Shown here one piece after another: positions 5,061 through 64,000 of a stretch of 64,000 nt of DNA; position 1 is the first letter of the stretch; every line of letters begins with the position of its first letter. The notes beneath the pieces are model-generated. The model did not search any database. It saw only the letters and a list, made by a program, of their open reading frames with translations, and was not told the origin of the DNA. Source of the stretch: Flavobacteriales bacterium (lineage in GTDB: Bacteria > Bacteroidota > Bacteroidia > Palsa-965); assembly GCA_040377305.1 (NCBI GenBank), contig JBEIPA010000014.1, positions 1-64,000 of the forward strand, read 5' to 3'. Made by a program: the position numbers and the translations under genes.

Positions 5061-7253
5061 ATGATCACACACAATCGCCTTCGTCGGGCTGCTTTTCTCT
5101 GCTTTATACTGATGCAATCCTGTCTCTTTGCACAGGTGAGAGAAATTGACAGTCTGAAAAAACTTCTTCCTGCAATTTCCGATCGCAGAGAAACCGCACT
5201 CCTTCTGGCATCGATTGCTGATCTTGAAGCAGGACTTGATGATGATTCTGCTTTATCACATGGGGAACAAATCCTTGTCATCGGAAAAGAGCTCAATGAT
5301 GATGTGCTTCTTGGAAAAGGTTATGTAATTACCGGCACAGCGAAAATGTGGGTAAGCACACCGGAAGAAAGTCAGCATGATCTGAACCTCGCGCTGAAAT
5401 ACGGAGCGCTAACCTCTAACGACGAAATTCTGGGAGACGCATACCACAACATCGGAAATGTTTTCCGCCTTCAGGGCCAATGGGACTCAGCGTATCACTA
5501 CTTTGAAATCGCACTTAAGTACCGAATGGAGACAAACGATCCGAAGAGAATCGGTGCTTCATTGTCCAGTCTCGGAGCATACAATTACCATATCGGCAAT
5601 CTTCAGAAGTCCCTCGAGTATTATTATCAGGCACTGCCTTACCGGGAACAGTCAAATGACATACGGGGTCTGGCAACACTCTACACCAATATTGCATTGG
5701 TGCACATTGACCGAAAAGAGAAAACACTTGCTGTTAGTGCCAACTCAAAAGCGATGGCTTACAATACTATACTGGGGAACGAGTCCAGACTTGCCAGCAA
5801 TGAAAACAATTATGGGATCATCTATATCAACGAACTGGAATACGACAGTGCGATTTACTGGTATACACAATCACTCAACCGAAGAATCAGGCTAAAGGAT
5901 ACGGCGGGAATCGGCGAGTGCTATAACAACATCGGTAATGTATATAATCTGAAAGGTGATCACGTGAAAGCGTTGGAGAGTTACCGGTATTCACTGAAGT
6001 ACATTGAATATTCAAACGAATGGCATATCAATGCCGCTCTCTGCAATTTTGCTGTCTCCGCTGCCCACTGCGGCTTGATTGATACCGCCAGAATTGCTTT
6101 GCGCAGTGCACGTGAAATTGTTACTCAAATGGGTAATCTTCCGGATATGCGCTTAAGCTGGCATGGAGCTCAATCTGATTTCTACAACGTTATTGGCAAA
6201 TATGACTCGGCGCTTATTCATTACAAATTGTACGATGGACTTGAAGATTCGCTTTACAAATCGGAAACCGGTAAACAGTTGAATGAAATTGAGGCCAAGT
6301 ACGAATCGACCAAGAAGCAGAATGCAATTGATGAACTGACGGCAGTACAAAAACAAAAAGATCTTCAGATTCTTGCCGCGATGATTGGAATCGGACTTCT
6401 GATCGTGCTGGCAGGCTTCGTAATTTATGGCAGCAGACAACGCAAGAAAACGAATAAGCTGCTTGAAATTCAGAACACAGAAATTTCAGTTAAGAACAAA
6501 GACATCACGGATAGTATCATCTATGCACGCCGCATTCAACAAAGCGTTTTACCGGATAAAGAAGTTCTCATTAGCAGCGTTAATCAGGCTTTCGTGCTGT
6601 ACATGCCCCGTGACATTGTGAGCGGCGACTTCTATTGGTTTCGCAAGGAAGGTTCGCGTTTGTATATTGCTTGTGCCGACTGCACAGGTCATGGTGTTCC
6701 CGGTGCACTGGTCTCTGTTATTGGTGTGAATCTTCTTGAGCAAATCGTCGCTGCACAACCGTCCATTCCAACCGGCGAATTGTTGGATCAACTCCATCGC
6801 ATGATGCATATGGCCTTGCGCAAAGATTCTCTTTCATCTGAAGCCACCGACGGAATGGACATCGCCATACTCTGTATAGACCAGAATAGTATTGAATTTT
6901 CAGGTGCAGCGCGTCCGCTATTACATTACGATGGAAAGACTCTAAATCAGGTGAAGGGTGATCGCTTTTCCATAGGTGGAGTCAAAGAGCAGGATAGCGA
7001 AGTCAAATTCAGCACCCATAAATTTCCGGTGCGACGAGGTGACACGTATTACATGTTTACTGATGGCTATGCCGATCAGTTTGGCGGAGCGAAAGGAAAG
7101 AAATTCATGTCCAGCAAATTTTTCGAACTTGTCCAGTCGCAAATGGCCGGAAATCTTGTTGATCAGGAAACCTCGATTGCCCAAACATTCAGCTCCTGGA
7201 AGGGTTCACTGGAACAGGTCGATGACGTTCTCGTTATTGGAATAAGAATCTAG
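5061..7253 (+). CDS. TPR-repeat periplasmic sensor + TM + SpoIIE/PP2C-type phosphatase
   Basis: TPR repeats (YHNIGNVF, YNNIGNVY); TM helix; PRDIVSGDFYW, DCTGHGVPGA, DGMDI, TDGYADQFGG, QVDDVLVIG; start placed after the -7 box at 5044. Confidence 0.9.
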   Translation: MITHNRLRRAAFLCFILMQSCLFAQVREIDSLKKLLPAISDRRETALLLASIADLEAGLDDDSALSHGEQILVIGKELNDDVLLGKGYVITGTAKMWVSTPEESQHDLNLALKYGALTSNDEILGDAYHNIGNVFRLQGQWDSAYHYFEIALKYRMETNDPKRIGASLSSLGAYNYHIGNLQKSLEYYYQALPYREQSNDIRGLATLYTNIALVHIDRKEKTLAVSANSKAMAYNTILGNESRLASNENNYGIIYINELEYDSAIYWYTQSLNRRIRLKDTAGIGECYNNIGNVYNLKGDHVKALESYRYSLKYIEYSNEWHINAALCNFAVSAAHCGLIDTARIALRSAREIVTQMGNLPDMRLSWHGAQSDFYNVIGKYDSALIHYKLYDGLEDSLYKSETGKQLNEIEAKYESTKKQNAIDELTAVQKQKDLQILAAMIGIGLLIVLAGFVIYGSRQRKKTNKLLEIQNTEISVKNKDITDSIIYARRIQQSVLPDKEVLISSVNQAFVLYMPRDIVSGDFYWFRKEGSRLYIACADCTGHGVPGALVSVIGVNLLEQIVAAQPSIPTGELLDQLHRMMHMALRKDSLSSEATDGMDIAILCIDQNSIEFSGAARPLLHYDGKTLNQVKGDRFSIGGVKEQDSEVKFSTHKFPVRRGDTYYMFTDGYADQFGGAKGKKFMSSKFFELVQSQMAGNLVDQETSIAQTFSSWKGSLEQVDDVLVIGIRI

Positions 7254-7512
7254 CCTGCGAATAGAACAAGAGAACGTCCTAAAGATTGCTTTTGCTCACT
7301 CGAAGTCACAATGATCTGGTGATTGGGATTAGACTTTAACCCTTCGAATTGATCAATTGAAGCGTACTTGTTAAGTTTTATACTGAGTTCAAGGTTAACC
7401 CTTCCACATTCTATAAGGATATCGTTAAAACTTGCAGTTTACCGCACGCATTCCGAAACATTACCGAACTTTGCACGCACAAATTAAGTGCGCGTTTCAC
7501 AATACTAGCTGC

Positions 7513-16399: not shown

Positions 16400-16571
16400 G
16401 GAACGTAAAGCTAATTAAGTATTGGAAGTTTCGTTGGTTCTTAACTTTAAAAGGTCTCATCATCCAAACCGGTTTAATGACGAGAATCAGCGAAATTTTT
16501 GAGATTTTAGACAAATATGTGACACATACCGATTGCTATTGGGGGAAATTTGTGCCAGCGAACACATTTTT

Positions 16572-17804
16572 GTGCAGAAAATAGCATTAGTCGTTTTATC
16601 TCACCACAGTCTTGATGTACAGGATGTCGGGCGTTTTCATATTGATGAAGATCGGCTCGGTGACGTCCTGAAACAGGTAAAGAATGCATGTGGTATTGAG
16701 GAGCTCATGTATCTCTCCACGTGTAATCGCGTAGAGTTCACAGTGGTGTCGCATCATGAATACAACAGAAATTTCCTGAACCTGTTTTTCTCTGCGCTGT
16801 TTACAGATCGCACGGAAGATATTGCGCTTGCTGTAAACAAAGCCAATGTTTTCGTTGGAGAAGATGCATTGCGCCATTCCTGCGAAGTTGCGGCTTCACT
16901 CGATTCTCTGGTAGTTGGTGAACGTGAAATTATCGCGCAGGTGCGTAACGCTTACGAGCAATGTCACGCACTTGGTTTGACCGGCGATAAAATTCGTGTT
17001 CTCGTGAAGAAAACGATCGAGACCGCGAAAATCATTTACACCGAAACTGATATCGCCCGCAATCCTGTTTCAGTGGTTTCACTTGCATATCGTAAGCTGA
17101 AAGCATTGCAGGTTCCGATCGAAGCAAAATTCATTCTCATAGGCGCTGGTGTTACGAACACGGCAATGGCGCGCTATCTGAAAAAGCACGGTTACAAGAA
17201 CTTTGCTGTTTTCAATCGCACCCTGGAGAATGCGAACAAACTCGCAACAGAACTTGGCGGAACAGCATACGAACTTTCTGTTCTGGATAAATATTCTGAC
17301 GGATTTGATGTGATCGTGACCTGCACTGCGAGTGAAGGAAGTGTGATCACTGAAAAAATATATCGTGCACTCGTTGGAGAAGATCGCAAGCGTAAAGTGG
17401 TGATTGATCTGGCTGTACCGAATGATCTGGACCCTGCAATCCTCAATAACTGGGAAGTAAACCTCATTGCGGTGAACAACCTCAACGATGTGGCAGCAGA
17501 TAATCTGAAAGAACGTGTTAAAGCGGTTGCTGTTTGTCGTGGCATTATCGACAACGCCATCGTAGAATTTCGCTCACAGTTCCGCATGCGCCAGGTAGAA
17601 ATTGCAATGCAGTCTGTTCCTGAGAAAGTGAAAGAAATCCGCAACGCTGTTCTGCACACTGTATTCGTTGAAGAAATCAAGGGACTCGATGCAAATTCGA
17701 AAGAAGTGCTCGAGAAAGTGATGAGCTACATGGAGAAGAAGTATATTTCTGTGCCGATGAAAATGGCAAGAGAAATTATTACCGCTGAGGCGCACGTGAA
17801 ATGA
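16572..17804 (+). CDS. hemA: Glutamyl-tRNA reductase
   Basis: LSTCNRVE catalytic motif, SLDSLVVGEREI, IGAG, IDLAVPND; start codon (GTG 16572) uncertain. Confidence 0.95.
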   Translation: MQKIALVVLSHHSLDVQDVGRFHIDEDRLGDVLKQVKNACGIEELMYLSTCNRVEFTVVSHHEYNRNFLNLFFSALFTDRTEDIALAVNKANVFVGEDALRHSCEVAASLDSLVVGEREIIAQVRNAYEQCHALGLTGDKIRVLVKKTIETAKIIYTETDIARNPVSVVSLAYRKLKALQVPIEAKFILIGAGVTNTAMARYLKKHGYKNFAVFNRTLENANKLATELGGTAYELSVLDKYSDGFDVIVTCTASEGSVITEKIYRALVGEDRKRKVVIDLAVPNDLDPAILNNWEVNLIAVNNLNDVAADNLKERVKAVAVCRGIIDNAIVEFRSQFRMRQVEIAMQSVPEKVKEIRNAVLHTVFVEEIKGLDANSKEVLEKVMSYMEKKYISVPMKMAREIITAEAHVK

Positions 17805-17902
17805 TGTGCAGATTTGCAAATGTGCGGATGTGCAGATTCATTAATTGTTAGCAGCTAGCACCAACAGCATTTTCACATCCGCACATCTTCAAATTTGCAC
17901 AT
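17804..17902. repeat. Inverted octamer-repeat arms (ATGTGCNG)
   Basis: ATGTGCAG-ATTTGCAA-ATGTGCGG-ATGTGCAG ... TTCACAT-CCGCACAT-CTTCAAAT-TTGCACAT; begins in the hemA stop codon. Confidence 0.85.
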
Positions 17903-17913
17903 AGACCAGAGTC

Positions 17914-18021
17914 GTGAATCGAAAACTCATCATAGCATCCCGCGGAGGTGAACTTGCTCTTTGGCAGGCGAACCGATGTGCCGATGTGCCGATATGCAGA
18001 TATGCCGATACCAGAACTTAG
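17914..18021 (+). pseudogene. Duplicate 5' fragment of hemC (20 codons) fused to an octamer repeat arm; 35-codon mini-ORF
   Basis: VNRKLIIASRGGELALWQAN-RCADVPICRYADTRT* versus HemC MNRKIVIASRGSELALWQAN; the TAG is directly followed by the hemC ATG. Confidence 0.8.
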
Positions 18022-19593
18022 ATGAACAGAAAAATTGTCATCGCATCTCGAGGAAGTGAGCTAGCCCTGTGGCAGGCCAATTTCGTATGCGATCAACTCA
18101 AAGAAATTGGAATTCGATCGGAAATCAAAATCATCAAGACGCAAGGTGATAAGATTCAGCATTTGAGTCTGGATAAGCTGGAAGGCAAAGGTTTTTTCAC
18201 GAAGGAAATTGAAGAAGCCTTGCTGAAGAAAGAAGCTGATCTTGCAGTGCATTCGCATAAAGATTTGCCGACTGAATCGCCGGAAGGATTAGTTGTGGCA
18301 GCGGTTTCTTACCGGGAGAATCCGGGAGAGCTGTTGATCATCCGGAAAGAATGCACGGACAACAAAAAGAAATTTCAGCTTAAAATGAATGCGATTGTGG
18401 GCACATCTTCCGCGAGAAGAAAAACGCAATTGCTGGCTTATCGTCCGGATATACAACTGAAAGACATTCGCGGTAACGTTCCTACGCGTATTGAGAAATT
18501 ACGCAATGGAGATTTTGATGCTATTCTTCTCGCTGCGGCAGGAGTTGAACGCTTGAATATTGATCTGAGCGAATTTCAGGTAGAACGTCCTACGCCAACA
18601 GAATTCATTCCTTCACCCGCACAAGGCGTTCTTGCGTTGCAAACGCGGGAAGAAGATCATGAACTCATTGCGGCTTTGCAGAAAATTCATCATCCCGATG
18701 TACAGGAATGCATTGCTATTGAACGGAAAATTCTGAATCTCTTTCAAGGCGGTTGTCAGATGCCACTCGGTGCCTATTGCGACAAAGAAGAAGATACGTT
18801 TCGTGTGTGGACCGTAATGTCGAAAGAATGGAACACTCCTTTGCGAACGCTTTACAATGAGAGTGCAGATCCAACAGTGTTGCCTCAGCGCATCGTGAAC
18901 AAATTGCAGGCGTTCAAACCTGTTTCCGTCTATATCACACGCGATCTTCGCGAAAACGATTTCTTCTCACAAGTATTGAAAGCAAACGGCTGTGATGTAC
19001 ACGGACTCGCGCTTATCGACACGCAACGCATCATTGCAAAGAAAATTCCTCAGGCCGATTGGATTTTCTTCTCCAGCAAAAACGGGGTGAAACATTTTCT
19101 TGCGCAAACAAAAGTTGAGCCCGGACAGAAACTCGCTGCAGTTGGCAAAGGAACTTCGGATGAATTGCGCAAACACAACCTGCGTGCCGATTTCATTGGA
19201 GGAACAGCAGATACACGCATCATTGCAAAACAATTCGGCGCGGTGTGCGGAAGATCAACTGTGCTTTTCCCGCAAGCCAAAGGCAGCATGAAAACGGTTC
19301 AGCAGCAATTACCAACTGCCAAAGTAATTGACCTCACCGTTTACGAAACATTGACCCGTCCTGCGAAAGATATTCCCACATGTGATGTGCTGGTCTTCAC
19401 CAGTCCGTCGAATGTAGAAGCATATTTTGCATCAAACACGATTTCAAAAACACAGAAAGTCGTTGCAATGGGTCACGCCACGGGCAGCACGCTGAAAGAA
19501 AAGGGAATTGTCAGCTTCGTTACTCCCGGAACGTTTGATGATGCGGGGTTAGTGAGAGCGGTGATGGGAATGGCAGTACTCGATACGAAATAA
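18022..19593 (+). CDS. hemC: Hydroxymethylbilane synthase fused to uroporphyrinogen-III synthase (HemC-HemD)
   Basis: SRGSELALWQA, GKGFFTKEIE, VHSHKDLP, GTSSARR, IRGNVPTR, cofactor Cys GGCQMPLG; C-terminal about 220 aa with WIFFSSKNGV, AVGKGT, FTSPSNV typical of HemD. Confidence 0.93.
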   Translation: MNRKIVIASRGSELALWQANFVCDQLKEIGIRSEIKIIKTQGDKIQHLSLDKLEGKGFFTKEIEEALLKKEADLAVHSHKDLPTESPEGLVVAAVSYRENPGELLIIRKECTDNKKKFQLKMNAIVGTSSARRKTQLLAYRPDIQLKDIRGNVPTRIEKLRNGDFDAILLAAAGVERLNIDLSEFQVERPTPTEFIPSPAQGVLALQTREEDHELIAALQKIHHPDVQECIAIERKILNLFQGGCQMPLGAYCDKEEDTFRVWTVMSKEWNTPLRTLYNESADPTVLPQRIVNKLQAFKPVSVYITRDLRENDFFSQVLKANGCDVHGLALIDTQRIIAKKIPQADWIFFSSKNGVKHFLAQTKVEPGQKLAAVGKGTSDELRKHNLRADFIGGTADTRIIAKQFGAVCGRSTVLFPQAKGSMKTVQQQLPTAKVIDLTVYETLTRPAKDIPTCDVLVFTSPSNVEAYFASNTISKTQKVVAMGHATGSTLKEKGIVSFVTPGTFDDAGLVRAVMGMAVLDTK

Positions 19594-19611
19594 TACCTTC
19601 ACGCTTATCAA

Positions 19612-19687: not shown

Positions 19688-20656
19688 ATGAACATTCGCC
19701 CACGCCGCACCCGCAAAACCTCCATCTCACGCAACATGGTTGCAGAAACACGTCTCAACAAAGACATGTTTGTGTATCCGTATTTCGTAACGCACGGAAG
19801 CAATATCAAGAATCCGATTAAGGCGATGCCGGGAATCAATCACTTCTCTGTGGATATGCTGCTCGCTGATGTGAAAATTGGATTGAAACACGGCATCAAC
19901 AAGGTTTTGATTTTCGGTGTTGGTGAAGAAAAATCGGAAGATGGTTCTTCCTCGCATTCACACAAAAGCATTGTGCCTATTGCAGTTGAAGCGCTGAAAG
20001 AAGCGTTCGGCGACAACATTTACGTGATTACCGATGTCTGCGTTTGTTCGTACACGTCACATGGTCACTGCGGGATTCTCGAAGATGGTTACGTAGACAA
20101 CGACAAGTCGGTTGATCTGCTTTGCAAGATGGCGCTTTCACATGCACAAGCAGGTGCAGATATGGTTGCACCTTCAGACATGATGGATGGGCGCGTTGGA
20201 GCAATCCGTGAAACACTCGATGACAACGGATACGTGAATACAGGAATCATGTCGTATGCCGTGAAGTTTGCTTCTGCATATTACGGTCCGTTCCGTGAAG
20301 CGGCAGATTCTTCTCCGCAATCAGGAGATCGTAAAGCGTATCAGATGGATCCGCGCAACGGTAACGAAACGATTCGCGAAGCATTGCACGATGAAGACGA
20401 AGGTGCAGACATTCTTATGGTGAAACCAGCTCTCGCGTATCTTGATATTATCCGCAGAGTAAAAGATGCAACCTTGCTCCCACTTGCGTGTTACAACGTA
20501 TCGGGAGAATACAGCATGGTGAAATGCGCAGCCGAACAAGGATTGATTGATGAGCAGAAGATTGTGATGGAAAACATGACTGCGTTTGCACGTGCAGGTT
20601 GTGATATCATCATCACGTATCATGCGAGGGATATTGTGGAGAAGGGTTGGTTGTAA
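19688..20656 (+). CDS. hemB: Porphobilinogen synthase (ALA dehydratase), Zn type
   Basis: RPRR start; DVCVCSYTSHGHCG; APSDMMDGRV; SAYYGPFREAA; MVKPAL; YNVSGEYSM. Confidence 0.97.
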   Translation: MNIRPRRTRKTSISRNMVAETRLNKDMFVYPYFVTHGSNIKNPIKAMPGINHFSVDMLLADVKIGLKHGINKVLIFGVGEEKSEDGSSSHSHKSIVPIAVEALKEAFGDNIYVITDVCVCSYTSHGHCGILEDGYVDNDKSVDLLCKMALSHAQAGADMVAPSDMMDGRVGAIRETLDDNGYVNTGIMSYAVKFASAYYGPFREAADSSPQSGDRKAYQMDPRNGNETIREALHDEDEGADILMVKPALAYLDIIRRVKDATLLPLACYNVSGEYSMVKCAAEQGLIDEQKIVMENMTAFARAGCDIIITYHARDIVEKGWL

Positions 20657-20659
20657 TTC

Positions 20660-20778
20660 GGCAATAGGGCATTGGGGCATTAGGGTGCTGGGAGAATACT
20701 GTGTCACGAACTTGTAATCATTTGCGACCTAATCCGATCAATGCCCCAATGCCCTATTGCCCTAATCCCCCAATACCC
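20660..20778. repeat. Inverted octamer-repeat arms (GGCATTNG)
   Basis: GGCAATAGGGCATTGGGGCATT (20660-20681) is the exact reverse complement of 20740-20761. Confidence 0.88.
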
Positions 20779-20804
20779 TTCTCCTCTATTTCCTATCTTG
20801 CACC

Positions 20805-35139: not shown

Positions 35140-35144
35140 AAGAA

Positions 35145-35326
35145 GGGAGTCGGGAGATTGGAGTCGGGAGTAACGACCAGTGTGTATACATCTACTGAGG
35201 TCAGAACAAATATATTTCGAAATTGGCATGAAGTTTTCTTTAGCAGCTTGAGGTCATCCCGCAATTAAAGAAATGTGTTTGTTTAAAAACAACTTTCCAC
35301 TCCAGCCTCCCATTTCCCGACTCCCA
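35145..35326. repeat. Inverted heptamer-repeat arms (GGGAGTC / GACTCCC) around a 125-bp loop
   Basis: GGGAGTC-GGGAGAT-TGGAGTC-GGGAGT ... CACTCCA-GCCTCCC-ATTTCCC-GACTCCC. Confidence 0.8.
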
Positions 35327-35420
35327 TCTTTTTCTTACCTTACGTAGACAAACTGCGACAAATGAAATCCTGACGTTTACAGTCGGGATTCACGAATTCA
35401 CAAACTCAAAACTCAAAAGA

Positions 35421-36089
35421 ATGCGTAAAATATTCCTACTCGTGCTCGCTACGGCTGCACTTACACTTCCTGCTCTTGCTGGCGACGGCGTTAAGGTCAA
35501 AGTGGAATCGAAGAATGAAAAGATCAATGGAGGTTCCCATCCTTGTCTTGTTGTAACTATTTACGATGCAACTCCCAGCGACATCGAGAGTGAATGGAAA
35601 AGCACGATGAAAGGTTACGATGCGAAAGTGAGCGGCAAGGATGAAATTTTTGCCGACAACGCACTCATCAAAGCAATCAGTGAGAACACCTGTGATGTGT
35701 ATGCGTACACAGAAAAAATCAGCGATACAGAAACAAAATTTGTTGTCGGATTTCTTCTCGGTGAAACCTGGATCGATTCCAAAAGCACTTCCTACAATGC
35801 GGCTGAAAAAATCGTGAAAGATTTTGCCATTGAGCAATCCAAAGATGGAATTGCAGTAAAGAGAAAAGCTGCAGAGAAACTGCTCGACGATCAGAAAGAC
35901 GATCAGTCCGATCTTGAAAAGAAGAACAAAGATCTGCACGACGATATCGCAGATTATAACGAGAAGATCAAGAAGGCTGAAGCCGATATCAAATCCAACG
36001 AGGACGAGCAAACAAAAAAGAAAGCGGAGATTGATGCGCAGCAGAAGGTGGTTGATGACCTGAAATCGAGAGAAAATTCTGTCGAATGA
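35421..36089 (+). CDS. Secreted hypothetical protein with C-terminal coiled coil
   Basis: Signal peptide; long K/D/E heptad tail. Confidence 0.75.
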   Translation: MRKIFLLVLATAALTLPALAGDGVKVKVESKNEKINGGSHPCLVVTIYDATPSDIESEWKSTMKGYDAKVSGKDEIFADNALIKAISENTCDVYAYTEKISDTETKFVVGFLLGETWIDSKSTSYNAAEKIVKDFAIEQSKDGIAVKRKAAEKLLDDQKDDQSDLEKKNKDLHDDIADYNEKIKKAEADIKSNEDEQTKKKAEIDAQQKVVDDLKSRENSVE

Positions 36090-36232
36090 TAGGATGATAG
36101 AATTATCGGATGATGGGATGGAGTCACGTTTAAAGTGGCCTTAACCCTCTTTTCAATAAGAATTCAGACCAAGTGGTTTTTGTAAGTAGCTGTTTATCTG
36201 ATCATTATATCATCCAATCATCAAATGATCCT
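36086..36232. repeat. Inverted octamer-repeat arms (GATGATNG / CNATCATC)
   Basis: ATGATAG-GATGATAG-AATTATCG-GATGATGG ... CTGATCAT-TATATCAT-CCAATCAT-CAAATGAT. Confidence 0.75.
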
Positions 36233-36290
36233 ACCGAGGGCGCCTCATTTTTTGGTAACTTCGAGTCCCTAAATTTTAAGAGACTATCGA

Positions 36291-37274
36291 ATGAAGACGT
36301 TGGTTGAACAGTTTCCGTCGCAACTCAGTAAAGCGATCGAAATCGGAAGAAGTGCGAAGCTCACAGCAGCGAAAAACGAAATCAGAAATGTACTGGTTAC
36401 TGGTCTTGGTGGATCAGGTATTGGAGGCACAATCGTTTCTGAGCTTGCTTTCCCCGAGTGCCCTGTTCCTATGCAGGTAAGCAAAGGCTATTTCATTCCT
36501 GCTTACGTTAATGCGAACACGCTGGTCGTTGTTTCATCGTATTCAGGAAATACAGAAGAAACGTTGGCGTGCATGAAACAGGCATTTGAAAAAGGTGCAA
36601 CTGTTTGTGCAATCACTTCCGGAGGTGCTGTTGAAGCATTCGCAAAAGAAAATAAGCTCGACTATATTTTAATTCCGGGGGGCATGCCTCCGCGATCGTG
36701 TCTTGGTTATTCATTAACGCAGCTCGTTGCAATACTTGCACATCATCAATTGATTTCCGGTGATCACCTTGCCAATATTGAAAAAGCAAATGCACTGATT
36801 TCAAAAAATCAGGATGCTATTGCCGCACAGGGAAAATCAATTGCACAGTTTCTCCTCGGAAAAATTCCGGTGATCTACAGCACCACTCTATTCGAAGGAG
36901 TTGCCGTACGTTTTCGCCAGCAGCTGAATGAAAATTCAAAAGTGCTTTGCTGGCACCACGTAATTCCGGAGATGAACCACAATGAACTTGTAGGTTGGGC
37001 CGGCGGAACAGAAGAATATGCAGTAATTGTTTTCCGCGATTCTTCCGAGTACGAGCGCAACGCAATCCGTATTCAGCTCAACAAAGAAATTATTACACGG
37101 TATACACCGCACTATCTCGAGATACCTACCGAAGGAACTTCATATCTCGAGAAAGCAATTTATCTCGTTCACATCGGCGATTGGATTTCAGTAGAGCTTG
37201 CAGCTTTACGTGGCGTTGATCCGGTAGAGGTGAATGTGATTAATTTTCTCAAAGGAGAACTCAGTAAAAAATAA
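36291..37274 (+). CDS. Bifunctional phosphoglucose/phosphomannose isomerase
   Basis: GLGGSGIGG, SSYSGNTEET, ITSGG, MPPRS, RFRQQLNENSK, PEMNHNE, RGVDPVEV. Confidence 0.92.
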   Translation: MKTLVEQFPSQLSKAIEIGRSAKLTAAKNEIRNVLVTGLGGSGIGGTIVSELAFPECPVPMQVSKGYFIPAYVNANTLVVVSSYSGNTEETLACMKQAFEKGATVCAITSGGAVEAFAKENKLDYILIPGGMPPRSCLGYSLTQLVAILAHHQLISGDHLANIEKANALISKNQDAIAAQGKSIAQFLLGKIPVIYSTTLFEGVAVRFRQQLNENSKVLCWHHVIPEMNHNELVGWAGGTEEYAVIVFRDSSEYERNAIRIQLNKEIITRYTPHYLEIPTEGTSYLEKAIYLVHIGDWISVELAALRGVDPVEVNVINFLKGELSKK

Positions 37275-37348
37275 TACGCAATATTCAATGCGCAATGCGC
37301 AGTTCATGGAACCATTGCATATTGCGCATTGAATATTGCGTATTGAAT
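37273..37348. repeat. Inverted heptamer-repeat arms (NCGCAAT / ATTGCGN) forming a long hairpin
   Basis: AATACGCAATATTCAATGCGCAAT (37273-37296) is the exact reverse complement of 37321-37344. Confidence 0.88.
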
Positions 37349-50707: not shown

Positions 50708-50736
50708 TCCGCCTCAAAGGTACGCAAGATGTGCCG

Positions 50737-51242
50737 ATGTGCCGATATGCCGATGTGCCAATATGCCGATGAATGAAACAATGAATCAATCAAATGTGCT
50801 ATCTAGTTTTCTGAACCTCCTTTTGCACTAACGATGATTTTGTTCAACACTTTGTTAATTGACTTAAGGTCCGTTTGTAAATCTCCCGGATCCGGCAATT
50901 CAGGCGACTGCGCACATAATTTTAACCAAAATGCAGTTTCATCTCCTTCTTTGGCCGCAATCTTCATCTTATGAATGAAATCCTTTTTGCTTTCCGCATT
51001 TTGAGCTTCACTTACGTTGGCACCAATCGAAGTGCCGGAATCAAATAGTTGTTGGGCCATGGAGCTTATCCCAGCTTTTTTCACCTCGAGGTGAAATGAA
51101 ATTATTTTCACCGCAAATTTTTCGGTTAGTTCTACAATTAGGTTTCCTTTTTCCATAAAATAATAAAGTTGAATGAGTAAATATTAAAACATCAAATCGG
51201 TAAATTCAATCGGCATATTGGCACATCGGCATATCGGCACAT
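50737..51242. mobile_element. Putative cassette: four-helix-bundle gene bounded by perfect 34-bp inverted repeats made of octamers
   Basis: 50737-50770 ATGTGCCGATATGCCGATGTGCCAATATGCCGAT is the exact reverse complement of 51209-51242; mobility is inferred, not shown. Confidence 0.55.
50803..51156 (-). CDS. Four helix bundle protein (TIGR02436 / 23S rRNA IVP / Avd-like family)
   Basis: FAVKII...QQLFDSGTSIGANVSEAQNAESKKDFIHKMKIAAKEGDETAFWL signature. Confidence 0.93.
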   Translation of the reverse strand: MEKGNLIVELTEKFAVKIISFHLEVKKAGISSMAQQLFDSGTSIGANVSEAQNAESKKDFIHKMKIAAKEGDETAFWLKLCAQSPELPDPGDLQTDLKSINKVLNKIIVSAKGGSEN

Positions 51243-63021: not shown

Positions 63022-63128
63022 AATTAGTTAATGTGCGTATTGGTTAATTGGTTGATTCCTGTGTTTTCTATTTACAACTGTTAACGTGCCGGCATCAACT
63101 AATCCGCACATTAACTGATCAACTAATT
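63022..63128. repeat. Inverted octamer-repeat arms (ATTRGTTR) inside the scoAB operon
   Basis: ATTAGTTA-ATGTGCGT-ATTGGTTA-ATTGGTTG ... ATCAACTA-ATCCGCAC-ATTAACTG-ATCAACTA. Confidence 0.8.
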
Positions 63129-63837: not shown

Positions 63838-63875
63838 AAAGCAACTGTATTAGTCCTCAAATGTAACAAGGAAAT

Positions 63876-63966
63876 GGGCATTAAGGCATTGGGGCATTAA
63901 GGGATTTAGGCTTGAACTTGATTGCCGGAATACCTTAATGCCCCAATGCCCTAATGCCGTAATGCC
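63876..63966. repeat. Inverted octamer-repeat arms (GGCATTRR), same unit family as 20660
   Basis: GGCATTAAGGCATTGGGGCATTAAGG pairs with CCTTAATGCCCCAATGCCCTAATGCC (25/26). Confidence 0.88.
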
Positions 63967-64000
63967 TGATTCTGCTGTAGCTATGGAGTATAGTCCGAGC

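Follow-up and report, generated by a model that had tools for sequence, protein, structure and literature searches.

A displaced hemC start beside repeat arms and the apparent turnover of gene ends near repeat elements

The hemA-hemC locus in the window (the whole 64-kb stretch of DNA analyzed here) holds two diverged starts of hemC separated by a repeat arm. On balance, we favor the view that two versions of the hemA-hemC spacer and hemC start were joined here in a one-sided recombination, in which DNA of a related lineage replaced the start of hemC and left the old one stranded upstream. The pattern behind this single scar matters more than the locus itself, and the roughly twenty gene ends of the same genome (99.99% complete, with a contamination of 0.53%) that share the hemC layout likely reflect repeated swapping of gene ends near repeat elements. 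We regard the hemC locus as a genuine scar left by a process of a known kind; its setting recurs, and we found no description of it. The features are compiled in Table 1.

A second start upstream of hemC

The sequence-only reading had reported a duplicate of the hemC start with mostly silent divergence. Indeed, 17914-17973 and 18022-18081 agree at 44 of 60 nt and, start codon aside, differ by 11 silent codon changes and 3 amino acid changes. The pair scored 26 in a genome-wide scan of 5′ ends, and since none of 4,228 shuffled pairs reached 14, the duplicate is not a product of chance. Twelve of the 15 point differences are silent, against 40% expected for an identical duplicate followed by drift (p = 0.002). 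Identical duplication plus drift is therefore rejected for hemC, in line with the earlier claim that both copies had been under coding selection. By the same figures, a target-site duplication, i.e., an identical copy followed by random decay, is dismissed at hemC; a few of the other pairs do fit it.

Table 1. Features of the hemA-hemC locus and related features of the window
Feature	Position	Strand	Basis
hemA, glutamyl-tRNA reductase	16533..17804	+	TIGR01035, E = 8e-71
Gene-less inverted pair of 8-mer arms (17804-17852, 17854-17902), allele A spacer	17804..17902	.	Inverted repeat I2
Short 5′ leader of allele A, ACCAGA motif	17905..17913	+	Sequence
Displaced hemC start (stub), allele A codons 1-20	17914..17972	+	44/60 nt with hemC
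Solo 8-mer arm, in the orientation usual after a stop codon	17973..18009	+	Array family
5′ leader of allele B: ACCAGA motif, then TAG closing the mini-ORF	18010..18021	+	Sequence
Functional hemC codons 1 to ~35, putative incoming allele B (right end approximate)	18022..18126	+	Codon comparisons
hemC fused to a hemD-like domain, intact	18022..19593	+	TIGR00212, E = 6e-88
Four-helix-bundle cassette (gene 50803-51156), inverted arms	50728..51242	-	TIGR02436, PF05635, inverted repeat I3
Second case in the window: final 7 codons (7230-7253) of a gene, found again at 7316-7339	7230..7339	+	Score 11, weak

The stub ends at a non-homologous joint (17972/17973), and the insert between it and hemC comprises 48 nt, made up of arm and leader. 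The arm had been said to begin where the copy ends, with 23 nt identical to 50728-50750; the identity was confirmed, but the 23-mer starts at 17975 and not at the copy end, the arm itself beginning at 17973. As had also been noted, ACCAGA lies upstream of both starts (17905-17910 and 18010-18015), and the mini-ORF of 35 codons is in frame with hemC, its TAG (18019-18021) abutting the hemC ATG. On the other side, the hemA stop codon directly abuts the first repeat arm, and the predicted fold of 17795-18045 (z = −3.67) contains a long hairpin at the arm pair. In the family of the solo arm, 7 of 46 arrays directly precede a start codon. The interval 17804-18021 contains arms only, with neither an integrase nor an endonuclease gene nor any other ORF in the insert. 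A search of the hemC spacer against Rfam gave no family at its cut-off and only miRNA hairpin models far below it, and a scan for promoters and terminators gave one promoter-like match (0.8 expected) and no terminator. For the hemC-hemD fusion, the uroporphyrinogen-III synthase models match below their own cut-offs. Gene-less inverted repeat pairs built from other repeat words were also seen in spacers at 20655-20793, 35140-35330, 36086-36233, 37273-37344, 63023-63119, and 63872-63974.

The genome was perhaps assembled from a mixed sample, which might suggest an assembly chimera of two strains. This explanation has next to no probability and is ruled out by a contig of an independent study (X2), which covers 17882-18279 and thus both joints with 2 differences in 398 nt. 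A second contig (X1), possibly the source, spans 16500-19600 with zero differences, and the contamination of 0.53% also speaks against a mixture.

The reading had further tied the hemC event to the entry of a cassette with the four-helix-bundle gene at 50803-51156. This specific tie is not upheld, the 23-mer being present in four exact copies in the genome, and no cargo gene entered here. With 230 arrays of period 8 and 114 of period 7, the arms form a genome-wide family, and the match to 50728-51242 hence marks a repeat family and not a shared event; the other duplicates described below contain several unrelated repeat families. A look for relatives with a four-helix-bundle gene upstream of hemC had been suggested, and one case was found: in 1 of 65 metagenome loci with an adjacent hemA, among the matches listed, the hemA-hemC spacer of a distant relative contains such a gene (PF05635) flanked by repeat arms (L069:490-1252). 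The hemA-hemC spacer can be a host site for such a cassette.

Resident and incoming starts

To which lineage each start belongs is addressed by a soil contig (X4), the closest genome (G015; 81% DNA identity over hemC), and codon usage. The soil contig matches window positions 17607-17972 with 34 differences in 366 nt, counted over the whole stretch and not the stub alone. Past 17972 it continues with 13 other letters, which read N-F-V-Q-S in frame, up to 18094 (codon 25), so that the window has 121 nt in place of 13 nt, an insertion coupled to a deletion as judged against this one contig. Since the contig runs from the stub into hemC in frame and without an arm, the stub is the working start of an intact hemC in a relative; the joint is seen in a single contig (depth 3.6), whose shorter flank of 21 nt was matched at 80% likeness.

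When functional hemC codons 1-35 are compared with G015, identity extends to 7 of 26 same-residue codons, versus 128 of 221 in codons 51-300; for codons 1-50, the count is 16 of 40 (p = 0.04 against 128 of 221). Hence, divergence is ordinary past codon ~35 and not so in codons 1-35, the donor allele of which was not found. The stub shares 7 of 13 same-residue codons with G015 and is favored at 7 informative sites, the functional start at 2. Eight other, more distant members of the genus favored the stub in four cases, with one tie and three losses. Furthermore, among 1,797 gene starts, codon use places functional codons 2-20 at the 3.5th percentile and the stub at the 47th. This agrees with the earlier claim of a foreign allele, inasmuch as one copy came from another lineage and the functional start is the outlier both in codon use and against G015. 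These sequence comparisons favor the stub as the resident and the arm plus new start as the incoming part.

In our model, the incoming fragment, with its repeat arm, its short leader, and codons 1 to ~35 of hemC, would have paired with the resident DNA through homology in the body of hemC. Its arm end would then have been joined, without long homology, to resident codon 20, and the resident codons that followed would have been removed. At the hemC joint itself, no microhomology is visible. The product would have survived because hemC was left whole and the divergence between the two copies hinders their loss by recombination, and the differences would be silent because both alleles were working genes. 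The mirror image of the same event would give rise to duplicates at 3′ ends. The incoming DNA may derive from transformation, as in homology-facilitated illegitimate recombination (HFIR), or from break repair on a foreign template that disengaged early (SDSA-like); a ComEC-family gene is present in the genome, which indicates a capacity for transformation at most.

The same recombination may be read in reverse, with the hemA end, arm pair, and stub imported onto a resident solo arm and start. The orientation of the solo arm is that found after stop codons, and spacers of the order stop-arm-start occur elsewhere. Moreover, pieces of the soil contig set (X4), perhaps from different organisms, are 90-91% alike over the hemA end and stub and 82-87% elsewhere, and the last 23 codons of hemA are identical to those of G015 at a fraction of 0.93. 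However, it is the functional start and not the stub that departs from G015 and from the codon use of the genome, and we consider the reversed direction improbable.

A DNA search of 27 genomes of the genus yielded neither a donor of allele B nor a second duplicated hemC start (best identity, 81%), and the 80 metagenome loci confirmed out of 507 (66-79% protein identity) held neither a donor nor a second hemC start among the matches listed. Nor was there a second start in the 19 same-genus loci that could be evaluated (the twentieth ran into a contig end; 18 if the unpublished genome G012 is left out), in which the hemA-hemC spacer varies from 32 to 525 nt, or in 9 loci of other families. Only the count of same-genus loci and the search of 27 genomes rest partly on G012.

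The reading had alternatively proposed a translated leader coupling expression to hemC. Its conservation was found in 0 of 19 same-genus, 0 of 9 other-family, and 0 of 80 metagenome loci (among the matches listed), and a conserved leader is unlikely. A 35-codon ORF selected for translational coupling would explain why it is in frame, why TAG directly precedes ATG, and why the old initiation context was kept, and coupling perhaps helped the scar to be tolerated. Yet the ORF is missing from all relatives examined, the 48-nt spacer has no internal stop in any of the three frames, an in-frame stop directly before the ATG occurs in 121 of 2,047 ATG-first ORFs, and the duplicates at 3′ ends would go unexplained. 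We therefore consider a selected leader very unlikely.

Near the 3′ end of hemC (19405-19556), three third-position differences from the window are common to contigs of three other studies, and a contig of one set (X3) differs at 13 of 152 nt compared to 0-3 nt for X3 contigs in the gene body. The hemC 3′ end may also have been replaced, with the caveat that the contigs are perhaps from different organisms.

Gene-end duplicates and base composition beside repeat elements

A genome search for other arm-linked duplicates had been proposed. Such duplicates exist across short repeat elements at 21 3′ ends of the genome, with further cases in G015 and another genome, G024. In the 3′ scan, the last codons of 4,228 mechanically called ORFs were sought again downstream. 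Scores of at least 12 were reached by 24 of the 4,228 ORFs and by 0 of 2,114 shuffles, and scores of at least 10 by 31 ORFs and 2 of 2,114 shuffles. Of these 31 pairs, 21 were kept by eye, and 10 were dropped before counting: three each were repeat arrays, shadow ORFs in repeat-protein genes, and tandem paralogues, and one was a likely chance match. About four chance matches are expected at scores of at least 10, and the four weakest kept pairs are therefore less sure. The hand-picked set amounts to ~0.5% of the ORFs and includes recG, asd, accC, rsmF, and genes for an ABC ATPase, a sigma factor, DUF4835, HI0933-family, and SpoIIE-domain proteins. At 5′ ends, hemC is the only clear case among the 4,228 ORFs. 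In the second case within the window (Table 1), the copy lies behind a 62-nt repeat and shows four silent changes, and a 14-mer of its spacer occurs in three copies.

The pooled 21 pairs have 96 silent versus 22 non-silent codon changes, and with ~40% silent expected under identical duplicates and drift, this origin is rejected for the pool as well. Single pairs range from identical to saturated; in the ABC-ATPase pair, 19 of 19 residues are kept with 13 codons changed, and a few pairs decay at random, such as that on C48 with 0 silent and 5 non-silent changes. Multi-copy sequence is found in the spacers of 14 of the 21 duplicates versus 581 of 2,986 other gene ends (p = 4e-6). Turnover appears to be faster at gene ends near repeat elements than at gene ends elsewhere, and this would account for the gathering of scars there.

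The polarity toward G015 is mixed. The displaced copy is nearer in recG (28 vs 9 of 43 sites) and asd (8 vs 2 of 11), rsmF (5 vs 4) and HI0933 (7 vs 8) are tied, and the functional copy is nearer in accC (9 vs 2) and DUF4835 (3 vs 1), giving two genes in each class; two further genes have no match in G015. G015 itself (1.52 Mb, 1,232 ORFs) has two pairs, with 9 silent and 0 non-silent and with 6 and 1 changes, plus a near-identical HI0933 pair; one of three matches with scores of at least 12 (a repeat array) and two 5′ matches beside N runs were dropped. The HI0933-family end is duplicated from the same codon in the genome studied here (L131) and in G015 (L158:778-1110), across different spacers, and the duplicate is diverged in the former and near-identical in the latter. 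The shared boundary suggests a preferred break point or continuing turnover. In G024 (0.8 Mb, 640 ORFs), one duplicate was kept, queA, and the other six of seven 3′ matches were CRISPR or repeat-protein artifacts. Indeed, G024 contains a CRISPR-like array with 46- to 47-nt repeats and unique spacers (L268:9300-13600). No gene-end duplicate was found in 0.1 Mb of G016.

Some of these duplicates bring up a local tandem duplication of gene end plus element at microhomology, after which the working copy alone would have undergone rapid silent change or been replaced by another allele. The queA end of G024 (L274:3428-3900) is present in at least three tandem units together with a complete 92-nt arm pair, and its copies, which differ at 3 of 123 nt, are joined at a microhomology between arm and gene. 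Such a microhomology of ~6 nt marks the joints of both young duplicates, the other being HI0933 of G015 with 1 difference in 90 nt. In recG (L126:775-1230; C11), the last 41 codons exist in three copies with the same 39-nt arm between them; the middle copy combines patches of the two others and has three sites that match neither of them. A number of pairs are either nearly identical or, like that on C48, in decay, as local duplication would predict, and coding DNA beside arms has its own base bias. However, this reading demands a much faster rate of change in the live copy than in its dead counterpart, and the two spacers of hemC are unlike in arm word and layout.

The base bias is pronounced: at four-fold sites of the last 15 codons, G makes up 0.457 where a left-type arm adjoins (63 genes), 0.393 beside other repeats (356 genes), and 0.240 at tight operon junctions without repeats (456 genes), with ~0.24-0.25 in gene bodies. 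Codons within ~90 nt of arms are strongly G-biased, and the bias fades within 30-45 codons, a range that matches the duplicate lengths. Gene starts behind arms are C-rich and G-poor. Gene ends next to arms also diverge more from G015: at four-fold sites of the last 20 codons, identity between the two genomes amounts to 0.37-0.42 in 31 genes with an adjacent arm, versus 0.51-0.52 in 261 genes without. Within the duplicates, four-fold G is 0.48 in displaced and 0.27 in functional copies (p = 0.001), and at differing sites the displaced copy has G 47 times and the functional copy 11 times (p = 2e-6). A local bias toward G acting on the live copy does not fit these figures, the functional copies being near background and the displaced ones rich in G; overall, tandem duplication is an unlikely alternative to the one-sided scar, though one with two young pairs in its favor.

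Beside spacers, the bias was seen to be strand symmetric, with silent sites G-rich in the last 15-30 codons and C-rich in the first 15, strongest at arms and absent at tight operon junctions of the genome; bias also occurs in G015, G024, and G016. A strictly arm-specific G bias is not upheld, as G016 shows it with few arrays (2 in 100 kb): G is 0.41 vs 0.26 before gaps of at least 30 nt and 0.34 before shorter gaps. Among the matches listed, the metagenome loci had no such G bias.

Known systems and a possible role of the elements

Products of HFIR have one homologous end and one non-homologous joint with 3-10 bp of microhomology, and couple insertion to deletion, according to the accessible text of PMC3240628. 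The insertion coupled to a deletion relative to the soil contig and the microhomology of ~6 nt in two young duplicates resemble this. Differences are that tracts here span tens to ~150 nt instead of ~1 kb in the HFIR cases covered there, that the events recur at gene termini beside repeats, and that the foreign portion represents another, diverged allele of the gene affected, with a gene-end duplicate as the outcome. Plain HFIR does not account for pairs in which the protein is retained although most silent sites have changed; recombinational loss of similar duplicates, together with compositional contrast, may suffice to explain this silent divergence.

The element e14 and phage 21 integrate into icd and carry a replacement gene end in attP. 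Like these, the loci studied here show a gene made whole again by an end with silent divergence, the old end being displaced; unlike these, they have no integrase, tiny inserts, about twenty unrelated targets, and several repeat families. An att-type element is unlikely, given the absence of an integrase (the hemC insert being a 48-nt arm plus leader) and of a single conserved target (recG, asd, accC, rsmF, a sigma factor, and SpoIIE-domain genes are among the targets). More generally, a small circle or att-type element with a gene-end fragment could integrate by a single crossover, phage-like, in protein genes. In E. coli, gene-end duplications of 109-950 bp by single crossover of small circles are described in the accessible part of PMC3240628, and some pairs here have 12-46 identical nt at the far boundary. 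However, the insert contains neither an integrase nor another ORF, the target genes are many and unrelated, and the divergence of hemC continues to codon 24 in the soil contig and ~35 in G015, beyond the 20-codon stub; such an origin has a small probability.

The four-helix-bundle family found here is presumably kin of Avd. Avd-linked diversity-generating retroelements also have two copies of a gene-terminal segment, in the present case of up to ~130 nt, as far as the available text of 10.1101/2021.01.26.428298 shows; in contrast to the retroelements described there, the differences here are not adenine-specific and the protein is conserved. Diversity-generating retroelements and retro-copying are excluded by the zero matches of the reverse transcriptase profile PF00078 in the genome (99.99% complete) and by the presence of all twelve substitution types in the pooled pairs.

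In intronless homing of phage T4 with free-standing endonucleases, an intergenic element lies near a conserved gene, and break repair co-converts flanking coding DNA (PMC2988022, in its available sections). Here, too, an intergenic element adjoins a conserved gene, and several of the eight PF13366 genes of the genome lie between inverted repeats. In contrast, the hemC locus has no nuclease gene, the inserts are gene-less, and normal homing, as outlined there, leaves no duplicate. By analogy, selection to escape an element-encoded nuclease would be the bolder option for the silent divergence.

We hold it possible, if rather doubtful, that the repeat-armed elements themselves drive replacement of the adjacent 30-130 nt of coding DNA, with a break or nick made in trans and repaired on a recoded foreign allele. 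The break or nick at or near the element would be made by a cargo protein acting in trans (a GxxExxY-type nuclease, a Y1 HUH enzyme, or a partner of the four-helix-bundle protein). Repair on a foreign allele with a silently recoded end would prevent re-cutting, aborted repair would strand the old end, and repeated rounds would stamp the G-rich signature on the strand leading into the element. If true, homing would here take a gene-less form that acts on the chromosome and on many targets, a natural drive that recodes and replaces gene termini. If elements cause the pattern, the so far unexplained 7- and 8-mer arms and their small cargo genes gain a testable activity on host genes. Silent sites at gene ends in this lineage would also evolve differently from those elsewhere in the gene, with consequences for phylogenies and dS estimates. 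To test cleavage directly, the stubs offer both target sites and pairs of alleles.

Intergenic heptamer repeats of Beggiatoaceae, Cyanobacteria, and Bacteroidetes are short-period tandem repeats that adjoin start and stop codons, as do the arms, and their mechanism is given as unknown (PMC4679880); the available text of that study contains neither gene-end duplicates nor a flanking codon bias. In pneumococcus, repeat-mediated duplication by transformation works at a far larger scale, judging from the accessible text (PMC3784515), and in paralogues of S. aureus the repeated unit spans gene end, spacer, and next gene start, according to the available part of PMC2568036. Searches of open-access full texts brought up neither silently diverged gene-end duplicates linked to elements nor a flanking G bias; most subscription papers and all supplements lie outside this scope.

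The genome has 9 TIGR02436, 8 PF13366 (GxxExxY-type), and 10 Y1 transposase-family cargo genes, and inverted repeats enclose many of those inspected. Ten of 24 flanks contain, as judged by eye, a similar leader motif of ~30-60 nt upstream of the gene, whether of the four-helix-bundle, GxxExxY, or Y1 family (C52:210555, C45:49433, C51:46664, C10:136966, C11:48989, C10:11482, C1:655, C43:12128, C4:46567, and C38:2472). This motif may be a shared promoter or regulator site.
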